DNA of 64,000 bases from Gammaproteobacteria bacterium. GTDB taxonomy: Bacteria > Pseudomonadota > Gammaproteobacteria > JAJFKG01. Both the position numbers and the translations under genes were made by a program. The notes under the pieces are model-generated. The model ran no database searches. It was not told the DNA's origin and saw only the letters and a list, made by a program, of their open reading frames with translations. The first letter of the stretch is position 1, and every line of letters begins with the position of its first letter. Shown here in pieces: positions 25,652-30,715 of the stretch. The stretch covers positions 426,503 through 490,502 of the forward strand of contig OZ220716.1 of assembly GCA_965116795.1 (NCBI GenBank), in the 5' to 3' direction.

Positions 25652-26530
25652 TCACAAATATTCAGTTGCACGTGTACAGAATGCTAAAAATGATACCCAT
25701 TCTTGAACATCAACTGCAAATGAAGCATGTGCTGTATCATAAAAATGATAGTAATAAGTGTGTTTGCTGTAAATAACGTTTACTTGCTCATTTGACCAAG
25801 CTGGAGGAATCTGATCAATTGCTATTTTCAAGTAGAATGGTCTAGCCTGTGCATCAAGTAGCAAATAGCTTCCTTGTTGATCTGTTAAGTAAAATTCTAC
25901 TATGTTTTTATCAAAACAAAGTGTCTGGAAAAAATCAACAAACGCGATGTCACTTAAGTAAGGCAATTGTGTCTGCAATCGCCGCACAATAGGTAACGAT
26001 GACTGCTGAAAATAATTATAAGCTAGTGTGGTAATCGCTGTTGTTAACTTTATGTAAGTAGTAGGTGATGCATCTTTTATAACATATCCATCAATGACAC
26101 CGTTGCTTAATGCCTGTTTAGCATCGCTTAATTCATTGGGTGTAATTAATAATAATTTTTTGTAGGTTGTTTGCCCGATTTGTTGGCAAAATTCGATTGC
26201 AGAATCAGGCATTATCATTGTATCGATCACGATAACAGGGATTTCCTCAAAGCGATGAGATGATGCTAATTCTGTTAACAATGAGGTCGCCAGCCCATCT
26301 GTTTGTTCTGCTTTATTGTTAACAACATTTTTTTCTAGCCAAGTTTGCTGTCCTACATAAGGCACATAACTGCTTTGTAGAAATTGCATTGCTTGCGTTG
26401 GTTCATCAAAAAGATGATAAAAAAACTGTGGCAGCAATTTATTGCGTAAATTGATCAGATCACGGTACTTTTCACCGATCAATAGTACTGTTCCAGCAAC
26501 ATAACATGTTGGCAGCACATAATTTGTCAT
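25652..26530 (-). CDS. LqsR-like atypical response regulator (orphan)
   Basis: PTCY N-terminus, RFEEI.VIVID..IMP and IVEFYL.D..GS.LLLD, as recalled from Legionella LqsR; SD AAGGAG before ATG at 26530. Confidence 0.72.
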   Translation of the reverse strand: MTNYVLPTCYVAGTVLLIGEKYRDLINLRNKLLPQFFYHLFDEPTQAMQFLQSSYVPYVGQQTWLEKNVVNNKAEQTDGLATSLLTELASSHRFEEIPVIVIDTMIMPDSAIEFCQQIGQTTYKKLLLITPNELSDAKQALSNGVIDGYVIKDASPTTYIKLTTAITTLAYNYFQQSSLPIVRRLQTQLPYLSDIAFVDFFQTLCFDKNIVEFYLTDQQGSYLLLDAQARPFYLKIAIDQIPPAWSNEQVNVIYSKHTYYYHFYDTAHASFAVDVQEWVSFLAFCTRATEYL

Positions 26531-26723
26531 GCAGACTCCTTTCCTTGGAAACAAAAGTAACTTAAACAATTCTCATATTGCATAACTCGTGCGCTGGAGG
26601 ATTCTACGAATTTTCATTTTGAATGTCACGTGTTTTTTTAACGAAAAAAATTGGCTTTGACTGTAAAAAAACATGGCAAATATCTTACAAAACACAGTGA
26701 CTTTTACGACTATTTAAGTCAAT

Positions 26724-26818
26724 TAACTTGCGTATAATGGTCACCGTCAAATTGCATAACTCCTTGTATTTTGTGCCAGCGCGTATATGACTCCCCGTTT
26801 TATACGCGCTTTTTTTAT
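26724..26818 (+). ncRNA. Putative sRNA gene, copy 1 (TATAAT, about 70-nt transcript, intrinsic terminator)
   Basis: TATAAT at 26733-26738; 10-bp stem AGCGCGTATA/TATACGCGCT followed by a T-run; 94/95 identical to copy 2. Confidence 0.68.
26778..26816 (+). terminator. Rho-independent terminator, copy 1
   Basis: 10-bp stem, 13-nt loop, T-run. Confidence 0.8.
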
Positions 26819-26928
26819 ATGGTAAGAAAAGGTTTCAGTATTGATCAAATGGGTAGTCATTGCTGCGTACAATACAAAGAGCTCATCACTCACAATAACT
26901 TAAGTCTTTTACTACTGTGCATGCTATG

Positions 26929-27023
26929 TAACTTGCTTATAATGGTCACCGTCAAATTGCATAACTCCTTGTATTTTGTGCCAGCGCGTATATGACTCCC
27001 CGTTTTATACGCGCTTTTTTTAT
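26929..27023 (+). ncRNA. Putative sRNA gene, copy 2 (205-bp offset from copy 1)
   Basis: TATAAT at 26938-26943; 26938-27023 is identical to 26733-26818. Confidence 0.68.
26983..27021 (+). terminator. Rho-independent terminator, copy 2
   Basis: Same hairpin and T-run as copy 1. Confidence 0.8.
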
Positions 27024-27107
27024 TAGACTCATTCATCAACTTTATCTACTCAGCCGACCATTACATTACCAAAAAACGTCAGCGTTGAACTGCAGAATTT
27101 AGATTCA
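27024..27107. repeat. Composite repeat scar (family D internal fragment plus degenerate family A right arm)
   Basis: 27048-27088 matches 23263-23303 at 32/41 positions ungapped; AACTGCAGAATTTAGATT resembles the family A TIR. Confidence 0.55.
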
Positions 27108-27238
27108 AGCAATGTGTATATATTTATTGGTTGGGACTTTGGAAAAGTGGGCGCACACTAATATTGTCAAGCATGCGCCACTATGGAAGATTGTTTAATA
27201 TGAATGAGCAAACTTTGGTGATTGCTCACAGTTGAAAA

Positions 27239-27550
27239 TTAATATTGACGTTCACGACCGCCACTACGACGACCACCGCGACCACCACCGCCGCCACCAG
27301 CATTTTCACGTGCACGGTCAACTTTCAATTTACGGCCTTCGTATTCATAGTCATTAAACTGCTCTAATGCAGCTGTCGCACCTGTTTTATCAACAAATGT
27401 AATAAAGGCATAGCCTTTTGAACGACCTGTTTCGCGATCACTAATCAGCCGAACTTCTTGTACTTCGCCGGCTTTACCAAATAGTGACCTCACATCTTCA
27501 TCAGTCGCAGAGAAAGGTAAATTCCCAACATAGAGTTTTGCAGTTTCCAT
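27239..27550 (-). CDS. Single-RRM RNA-binding protein with Gly/Arg-rich tail
   Basis: RNP2 LYVGNL, RNP1 KGYAFITF, DRETGRS and GGGGGGRGGRR tail. Confidence 0.93.
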   Translation of the reverse strand: METAKLYVGNLPFSATDEDVRSLFGKAGEVQEVRLISDRETGRSKGYAFITFVDKTGATAALEQFNDYEYEGRKLKVDRARENAGGGGGGRGGRRSGGRERQY

Positions 27551-27883
27551 AATAGTCTCCTAGATCAAATTTTATACTGCTGCAAAGTAATGGAATCGGG
27601 AACAACCAAAGCACCTGATCAAACACAACTTGTAGCTCGGGCATGCTAACATAAGAACCAGTACACATCTATTAAGGTAGCTATTAATCTATTAAATAAG
27701 GTATAATTTTGACCAGAAATACGCTCTAAATAATACATGACATCTCATTAATCTACTACAAACCAGCACACCATACTGAATGATTGCTATGCAAATAGCA
27801 TGAGTTACAGTATATTTAGCAGTGTGTTACCTGGCGTTTTCATTAGTAAACCCATCTAGGTTAAATCACAAAACAAAAGGTAT

Positions 27884-27922
27884 TACACTCAAAGCGTTTT
27901 GACTGTAGGCGAGGCGGCAAGC
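27884..27922. repeat. ERIC-like element, left-arm fragment
   Basis: ACTCAAAGCGTTTTGACTGTAGGCGAGGCGGCAAGC is identical to the left arm of 58389-58514. Confidence 0.85.
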
Positions 27923-27950
27923 TTGTGAACAAATCGATGTGGATGGTATA

Positions 27951-28765: not shown

Positions 28766-30715
28766 ATGGCAAAAAATCAAAAACGCATGTTAATCATGCA
28801 ATCATTAAGTTTTCTATTGTTATGTATAACCATCATGCTAGTCTGGCATGTTGGTGATCAACTGCATATTGCTGGGTATACCCCATTAGCAACATCATTA
28901 AGTCGCACAGTTGTTAACAGTCTATTTATCATTTGTTGGTTATCACTTATTTTAAGAAAAACCAAACAACCCTTTATTTTTTCGTCACGCCAAGCTAAAA
29001 CCAGAGCAATGTTAACATTACTGAATCACCGATTTTATGGTGCCATTCATTTTTTAAAACGCACATCGACAAAATCGAAAACACAAACAAATCATTTATA
29101 TGACTTACCTTGGTATTTAGTTATCGGGCCACCTGGCTCTGGTAAAACAACACTGCTAGCAAAATCAGGTTTATCATTCTCGCTAGCCAAACAACAAAAT
29201 AATATTCAATCAACAGAATTGTGTGACTGGTGGGTAAGTCGTGAAGCTGTGTTTTTAGATACAACTGGACAATTCTGCCCAACAACGAAATATATGCTGC
29301 ATTATAAAATACTGTGGCATCGCTTATTACAACTGATTAAAGAACAAGGCCAGACACGCTTAAATGGTATCATATTAGTGTTAGATTTACCGGGCATCGC
29401 TAAATTACCACACAACAAAAAATTATTGCTATACCATAATATACGTTCAAATTTGGCTGTTGTTAAAAAATGCTTACCAACTGAAATTCCTGTGTATTTG
29501 ATATGTAATCAGTGTGACCGCATTCTCGGTTTCCAGGAATTTTTTGCTGACCTTGGTAAAGAAGAACAGCAGCAAATATGGGGAACAACATTGGCTAACT
29601 CGTATAATATACGACAACGCTCATTATTAACCATTGTAAAAAAAGAATTTTCAGCATTACTTATGCGATTACATGAACGCTTACTATGGCGTTTACATCA
29701 TGAACGCAACCAACAAACAAGGCTATTAATTAAAGACTTTCCCGTACAGTTAGACATGCTCAGCAAACAAATACTATTAGCTATTAAACAGATGGCTAAT
29801 ACTAGCAAACTATTGTGGCTACGCGGCATTTACTTAACTAGCAGCACGCAAACTAACGATATAGAAGATTATGTATTATCTACGGTGCAAAAAAACTTAA
29901 ATTTGCCAGACATAGCTACTCATCGATTACAAACTGTATCTTATCATCAGCCAACTGCACTTTTTTCTAAACATTTTCTACAACAATTATTACAGCAAGA
30001 TCAACACTTAGTATCAAAGAATAATGCTCACTTAATTAAAACATGTGGACGGCATACAACCATTATTTCTGTTAGCATTATTGTATTTTATTGCGCATTT
30101 ACTTGGTCACAACAATTAAATCAATACAATAAACGTATTGTGCAGATTGAAAAAACACTTGCTAATTACCAAGTGCTCACTGCAATTATACAAAAATCTA
30201 CGCCAACTGATGTCAATCACGATACTCAACAGTCTACTCGTCATAGAGTAAGACTTATTCTACCTGCATTGAATGCAGCACAATCAGCTACAGATATGTT
30301 ATCAACGGTCCAATTAACACGGCTTACACGTTGGCTCAGCAACAATCATCAACAACTGTATGACAATGTACAACAACTCTATCAACAGGCACTGGTACAA
30401 TTACTCACACCAGAAATAATGCATATTGTGTATACGAAATTATTGAATACACATGAATATACATCAGCAGATTTTTACAGTGATTTAGAAGTATACTTAA
30501 TGCTAGGCCAACCCAAACACTTAAATTATAGCCTTGTACATGCTTGGCTAAATGCTTATTGGCAACAATTGTTTCCTGATGATGAAACAATCCAACAACA
30601 ATTAAAGCAACATACCTCAAATTGGTTAGCAGGCACATTAGAACCCATCAAATTAGATGATACGTTACTAGCAAAAATACATGAAGAAATAGAAAAGCAA
30701 CAGCAGAATAGTTAA
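28766..30715 (+). CDS. icmF: IcmF/TssM family protein, C-terminally short
   Basis: Two N-terminal TMs; LYDLPWYLVIGPPGSGKTT, CDWW, DTTG, LRGIYLTS and YLMLG motifs; only 649 aa. Confidence 0.85.
   Translation: MAKNQKRMLIMQSLSFLLLCITIMLVWHVGDQLHIAGYTPLATSLSRTVVNSLFIICWLSLILRKTKQPFIFSSRQAKTRAMLTLLNHRFYGAIHFLKRTSTKSKTQTNHLYDLPWYLVIGPPGSGKTTLLAKSGLSFSLAKQQNNIQSTELCDWWVSREAVFLDTTGQFCPTTKYMLHYKILWHRLLQLIKEQGQTRLNGIILVLDLPGIAKLPHNKKLLLYHNIRSNLAVVKKCLPTEIPVYLICNQCDRILGFQEFFADLGKEEQQQIWGTTLANSYNIRQRSLLTIVKKEFSALLMRLHERLLWRLHHERNQQTRLLIKDFPVQLDMLSKQILLAIKQMANTSKLLWLRGIYLTSSTQTNDIEDYVLSTVQKNLNLPDIATHRLQTVSYHQPTALFSKHFLQQLLQQDQHLVSKNNAHLIKTCGRHTTIISVSIIVFYCAFTWSQQLNQYNKRIVQIEKTLANYQVLTAIIQKSTPTDVNHDTQQSTRHRVRLILPALNAAQSATDMLSTVQLTRLTRWLSNNHQQLYDNVQQLYQQALVQLLTPEIMHIVYTKLLNTHEYTSADFYSDLEVYLMLGQPKHLNYSLVHAWLNAYWQQLFPDDETIQQQLKQHTSNWLAGTLEPIKLDDTLLAKIHEEIEKQQQNS

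Follow-up and report, generated by a model that had tools for sequence, protein, structure and literature searches.

We find that a Dot/Icm-bearing gammaproteobacterium probably encodes an Hfq-type family of sibling small RNAs (sRNAs) that pairs with, and represses, the mRNA of a neighbouring, atypical lqsR gene. Judged from its sequences the family is likely regulatory; it is uncatalogued, occurs in five to six copies per genome, and has two tandem copies beside the regulator gene in the 64,000-nt stretch of DNA that we analysed (the window; Table 1). Each copy would be transcribed from its own activator-dependent sigma70 promoter into an RNA of about 71 nt, and Hfq would bind the U-rich stretch and U tail of that RNA. 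The 5′ seed would pair with two leader sites of the divergent lqsR-like mRNA, covering its Shine-Dalgarno (SD) and start-codon region as well as some other AAGGAG-type leaders, and would most likely block translation; extra copies would add dosage. The comparison draws on two genomes, which are kin to each other.

The genome holding the window (G000) is a single gammaproteobacterial contig of 2.45 Mb with 41% GC. The comparison genomes were those of a congener (G001, 90% complete) and of a further family member (G002). DotB scored above its cut-off in all three genomes, and IcmH/DotU matched the type IVB model. Genes were called with a simple script of our own (2091 in G000; 1326 in 1.49 Mb of G001 pieces), and of 915 reciprocal best hits between the congeners the 697 with consistent starts were kept for target ranking. 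A preliminary description of this DNA had listed a regulator, two sRNA-like cassettes, an RRM gene and dotU-icmF, and all of these proved to be present and in place, dotU/icmH and then icmF lying beyond the RRM gene. Immediately upstream of dotU is a shortened copy (window 27883-27932) of a dispersed repeat that gives 56 BLAST rows in G000 including itself, with a longer copy upstream of hfq (near G000 851000). The icmF ORF (window 28766-30715) encodes 649 aa, 679 aa in G001, and matches PF06761 at positions 1-153 of 308 only; the protein seems C-terminally short in both congeners.

Table 1. Features of the regulator-sRNA-RRM region, in window positions.
Feature	Position	Strand	Details
Orphan LqsR-family response regulator, 292 aa	25652..26530	-	Sequence and fold match to LqsR
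RBS-overlapping seed site (predicted)	26527..26541	-	AAGGAG, 5-nt spacer, AUG; duplex -17.6 (G000) / -15.5 (G001) kcal/mol
Upstream seed site (predicted), near predicted 5′ end of regulator mRNA	26572..26593	-	Duplex -20.3 / about -14.5 (G001)
Predicted sigma70 promoter of regulator	26601..26629	-	-35 GTGACA, -10 TAGAAT; -10 conserved in G001; inferred
sRNA copy 1 promoter	26684..26738	+	CTTACA box 26684-26689, CTTTTAC element 26701-26707, TATAAT 26733-26738
sRNA copy 1, about 71 nt	26746..26816	+	Seed 26746-26769, terminator stem 26779-26809, U7 tail; 5′ end inferred from -10 box
sRNA copy 2 promoter	26889..26943	+	CTCACA box 26889-26894, TATAAT 26938-26943
sRNA copy 2	26951..27021	+	Transcribed part identical to copy 1
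Terminator-like hairpin of RRM gene	27146..27182	-	-17.3 kcal/mol; G001 counterpart -24.7
Single-RRM, Gly/Arg-tailed RNA-binding protein, 103 aa	27239..27550	-	PF00076 E=2.6e-24; convergent neighbour

The twin cassettes look like real sRNA genes. They lie 205 nt apart on the plus strand, are 92% identical over 118 nt, and display the hallmarks of an Hfq-dependent trans-acting sRNA: an own promoter, a seed, and an intrinsic terminator with U tail, in a genome with hfq (present in all three genomes). The RNA folds with a z of about -5.5, and none of 200 shuffles was as stable. The tandem is not an assembly artefact, since the spacer between the copies is without differences in contigs of three public runs from two studies. 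What had been described as an sRNA pair is thus real as twin cassettes; as a pair it is two of five copies in G000, and the congener carries only one copy at this place.

The five G000 copies (five of seven BLAST rows, E <= 3e-18) score 84-107 bits with a covariance model, the next match reaching 33 bits, and G001 has six. All 24 seed positions are invariant in the 11 copies of the two genomes, and the terminator loop is variable. The terminator stem covaries, with 98.3% of cells paired and double changes in 4 of 12 pairs; of 500 shuffles, a control that takes no account of kinship, none came up to the observed values for cells paired and covariation score. Every copy has a sigma70-type -10 box (TATAAT or TATACT), with a CTTTT.CC element and, about 45-50 nt above the -10 box, a CTTACA-like box. 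Across genomes these boxes are 52-56% identical and the promoter spacer 32%; between copies the spacer is 41% identical. This pattern suggests that promoter and seed are under selection in every copy. Several of the copies lie convergent to the next gene and hence are not leaders. The only copy at an orthologous position is the one divergent from the lqsR-like gene; the others occupy lineage-specific sites, and copies within a genome are more alike than copies of different genomes. One copy (G000:C1:2092633-2092713, minus strand) is flanked by tail genes within a prophage-like region, which may offer a route by which the family spreads.

The family was found in only one genus among the genomes and collections searched. 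No Rfam family gave a gathering match in the window except two tRNAs (best local E-value 1.8, unrelated families), and BLAST against 41 genomes returned no homologue outside the genus (best other E 0.011). The covariance model had no match in G002 and G005, a single terminator-like match of 23.6 bits in G038, and none over 151 genomes of the class, a set containing no positive control. In metagenomes the exact seed occurred in 12 stretches, none with promoter and terminator. A pattern search of GTDB gave 79 stretches, five of them carrying the G001 copies and 74 scoring <=21 bits, mostly reversed ribosome-binding sites (RBS); phage and plasmid collections held no match to the sRNA. In the accessible part of the literature that we searched, we came across no base-pairing sRNA present in several copies that adjoins lqsR or acts on it.

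The neighbouring regulator is LqsR-like, as first described: its best PDB match by sequence is Legionella pneumophila LqsR (6sy9; E=2e-27), and its model (pLDDT 83.7) has the receiver and five-stranded output fold of the family. Translation probably starts at the ATG at 26530 behind AAGGAG, the longest ORF opening at TTG 26569, and the G001 orthologue is 54% identical. The receiver is atypical. Its acidic pair reads GE (GE or GD in the subfamily) and its Thr is Ile, while the phospho-Asp (Asp103) and Lys152 are retained; Gly at the first acid and Ile for Thr recur in all five aligned subfamily members, in which Asp103 and Lys152 are invariant, so that the acidic pair, Asp, Thr/Ser and Lys of a canonical phosphorylatable receiver are incomplete. 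The output domain is shorter by about 40 residues, and neither sequence nor fold revealed a recognisable DNA-binding domain (AAA+ or HTH) in the protein. No kinase adjoins the gene at this locus; the best LqsA match in G000 scores 147.7 bits against a cut-off of 428, with none in G001 (90% complete), and the locus accordingly lacks the lqsA synthase and linked kinase of an Lqs quorum-sensing cluster. Elsewhere in G000 are two canonical LqsR paralogues (G000:C1:72281-74387 and 2145719-2148157), each beside a LuxN/LqsS-like kinase and without recognisable LqsA; neither was found in G001 with the query used.

The preliminary description had proposed that the sRNAs act on this regulator, and its leader is indeed the top conserved predicted target, ranking 1 of 697. 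We regard this arm as well supported in silico because both genomes have two seed-complementary sites in the leader and because of that rank. With the 24-nt seed, the upstream site (-80..-21 region) ranks first of the 697 orthologue pairs, as do all four sites together (-67.8; next gene -58.1). At 26577-26588 it is a perfect 12-nt complement to the seed, and apart from the five copies the 2.45 Mb of G000 contain no second occurrence of this 12-mer; five places in G000 match some 12-mer from the seed. The best rank that it attained among 64 full seed shuffles was 53. The size of the match is unexceptional in itself (z -4.15; the best gene in shuffles averages z -3.93), and the evidence lies in the top match falling on the neighbour. 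The RBS site ranks 7 of 697 (9 with a slightly different window); when shuffles kept the anti-SD core, 1 of 60 matched its energy and 3 of 60 its rank. Of the 14 nt of leader upstream of the start codon, 12 are identical in G001, a conservation that could alternatively be due to CsrA binding, by analogy with L. pneumophila lqsR, which CsrA represses at its RBS (PMC5338858). In G001 alone the regulator gene ranks 129 of 1326. Opening costs 5-7.5 kcal/mol on each side, which leaves only modest net binding: roughly -8 and -5 kcal/mol in G000, and roughly -2 and -5 in G001, whose upstream site is part of a stable hairpin.

The same seed might instead serve broad repressors of AAGGAG-type leaders, with the neighbour's complementarity a relic of duplication or one target of many. 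Its core is an anti-SD sequence resembling the 16S 3′ end, AAGGAG leaders precede 140 of the 2091 called genes, other conserved candidates exist (rpoE, which ranks first at the RBS, a htpG-like gene and an OmpA-like porin), and copy 1 and the upstream site, 174 nt apart, share one orientation. That site, however, has no -10 box or terminator, and in G001 its core departs from the perfect complement by A->G and C->U changes that preserve G:U pairing. Nor does any other target stand out, since the best genome-wide RBS duplex (-25.8) was matched by 4 of 45 shuffles and is not significant. We consider the broad-repressor reading unlikely. The gene with this best duplex (G000:C1:153774-158834, minus strand) encodes a protein of 1686 aa with no Pfam match, and its start region carries a 16-nt near-perfect seed complement. 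Large lineage-specific proteins make up 8 of the top 50 against 112 of 2091 overall, an enrichment largely explained by SD usage (32 of 324 AGGAG genes are of the same class), and the RRM mRNA, at rank 264 of 697, is not a predicted target; no wider regulon was resolved among the predicted targets.

We regard repression of the neighbouring regulator as a one-way arm and not as a closed LuxO/Qrr loop, because a DNA-binding regulator distinct from the LqsR-like protein is the likely activator. The circuit proposed at the outset had the LqsR-like protein driving the sRNAs, the sRNAs feeding back on it and the RRM protein acting as chaperone. The divergent layout is conserved, the regulator-sRNA-RRM order is kept in both congeners, the target arm has support, and there is a precedent for RRM-sRNA binding in the Bacteroides protein RbpB, which binds the 14-copy sRNA family FopS (PMC11697453). 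Against the drive from regulator to sRNAs stand the lack of a recognised DNA-binding domain, an LqsR output domain described as a degenerate, GGDEF-like sheet with no function assigned to it (PMC10653808), the sigma54 motif GG-N10-GC in none of the 11 promoters (45 nt upstream), and no LqsA above cut-off. Of the Qrr-like module, then, the multiple copies, as in Qrr1-5, and the syntenic copy divergent from the regulator found support, and the return arm did not, although the regulator may feed back on the sRNAs indirectly.

The RRM protein is the single-RRM, Gly/Arg-tailed protein originally described (87.7 against NF058537, cut-off 100), and its gene is single-copy in all three genomes. A role for it as a dedicated third part found no support, though binding of the sRNA family by an RRM protein would be possible, as in Bacteroides. 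Adjacency is uninformative because synteny is common in general, with 626 of 821 pairs of adjacent orthologues conserving it; three of five copies in G000 and five of six in G001 lie away from the RRM gene; in G002 the gene is flanked by a cydA-like and a permease-like gene, and no sRNA was found in that genome; and Hfq is present. The RRM mRNA would moreover end before the sRNAs, given its terminator-like hairpin. The RRM gene is probably no more than a neighbour, and we judge the full three-part circuit quite improbable.

As to the activator, the leading candidate is LetA/GacA, which we advance tentatively on the strength of a shared box. CTTACA, the right half of the UvrY/GacA box, is exact in seven of the 11 copies (CTCACA in one). 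LetA/GacA stays only a candidate because the left half, TGTAAG, is so rare, occurring in one copy; TGTAAG-N6-CTTACA with two mismatches has 88 matches genome-wide. G000 encodes GacA-like (G000 1730228) and PmrA/QseB-like (G000 1679250) regulators, each under its equivalog cut-off, and scanning with a promoter PWM gave no convincing additional regulon member. In Pseudomonas, rsmY has a box at a similar position. G000 also contains a separate, unannotated GGA-rich Rsm/CsrB-like RNA with a terminator (G000:C1:580630-581075, plus strand; L221:230-690), conserved in both congeners and preceded by a GacA-like box resembling the UvrY palindrome (PMC4682653). A second GGA-rich candidate RNA lies at G000 425031-425102 (minus strand), and csrA has four paralogues in G000, six in G001 and three in G002; two of the G000 csrA leaders are candidate partners of the seed, with duplex energies of -20.6 and -19.0 kcal/mol.

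The sRNAs themselves have no GGA motif and cannot be CsrA sponges, which need multiple GGA in loops. Pairing with the Rsm-like RNA is weak (-14.5/-15.9). The antisense of the seed starts AUACAAGGA and fits RUACARGGAUGU, the CsrA consensus obtained by selection. One could imagine that LetA/GacA activates, beside a CsrA-sponge RNA, a second class of RNA with a seed antisense to the CsrA motif, which would silence some CsrA-type leaders anew, that of the atypical LqsR foremost, just when CsrA is titrated away, whole cassettes of promoter plus RNA having spread independently in two species. This is a conjecture that we do not expect to hold as a whole; if true, it would give the Gac/Csr pathway of a Dot/Icm bacterium a branch that works by base pairing.

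The sign of regulation could be mixed. In the predicted G000 fold the start-codon region is paired to the upstream site, and occupying that site lowers the ribosome-footprint cost by 1.6 kcal/mol, from 8.7 to 7.1 kcal/mol, as would be expected if the RNA were an activator that frees the regulator's start codon from a masking leader structure. The same calculation gives no such effect in G001 (5.4 against 5.45), and because both genomes have a second site lying over the SD we favour repression; activation seems more improbable still than the full circuit. A selfish or neutral, MITE-like dispersed repeat, which the lineage-specific sites, the prophage-borne copy and the within-genome likeness would suit, or an antisense antitoxin, is highly improbable, since conservation is limited to promoter boxes, seed and stem, unlike the separate G000 repeat with its roughly 55 matches, and the antisense AUG stands 2 nt from AAGGAG and opens frames of unequal length.

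We suggest that the favoured reading, repression of the neighbouring regulator by a sibling sRNA family, adds an uncatalogued multicopy family with a specific predicted target to the Legionella/Coxiella-like Dot/Icm group, whose sRNAs, in the available parts of the literature, are mainly CsrA sponges and cis-antisense RNAs. Its reach is one genus, two genomes and an in silico basis. If true, Qrr-like logic would have been re-invented convergently on a regulator of LqsR type, the output of which has yet to be explained, and the family would be a clean example of sibling sRNAs expanding independently.

Vibrio qrr1 adjoins luxO, and here too one copy stands beside a regulator gene. Vibrio Qrr1-5 comprise four to five redundant copies with an invariant seed and an Hfq-type 3′ end; LuxO-P and sigma54 together switch their genes on, and the RNAs, with Hfq, repress a response-regulator mRNA, luxOU (PMC2632942). 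In silico, the present family shares the multiple copies and an invariant seed pairing with a regulator mRNA, but it has no sequence similarity to Qrr (no Rfam match) and has sigma70 instead of sigma54 promoters, its neighbour is no enhancer-binding protein, and no CqsA/LqsA-type autoinducer synthase was found. The streptococcal csRNAs (Ccn) are likewise five similar sRNAs with anti-SD and CAU in the conserved part, sigma70 promoters, a common upstream activator box and a terminator (PMC3091779). Theirs, however, is a Gram-positive system with the CiaR box TTTAAG-N5-TTTAAG (PMC3091779), whereas here the upstream motif differs, the seed is 5′, and the host is an Hfq- and Dot/Icm-bearing gammaproteobacterium, which argues against csRNA membership. 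Bacteroides FopS/RbpB offers multicopy sRNAs of 65-70 nt, built of a 5′ seed and then a terminator, that hit start-codon regions in a cell with an RRM protein (PMC11697453); the sequence is unrelated, the phylum is another, and Hfq is present here. With the Csr/Rsm system the family would share post-transcriptional control at the lqsR RBS, as exerted by CsrA in L. pneumophila (PMC5338858), and the upstream CTTACA half box (PMC4682653), but its RNAs lack GGA and carry a seed antisense to a GGA site. The regulator resembles LqsR/PhcX (6sy9; PMC10653808) in its two-domain fold (Foldseek TM 0.77) and its phospho-Asp and Lys, and differs in being an orphan with altered receiver residues and a shortened output domain. 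We conclude that the sRNA family works partly like Qrr and partly like the csRNAs, and belongs to neither.
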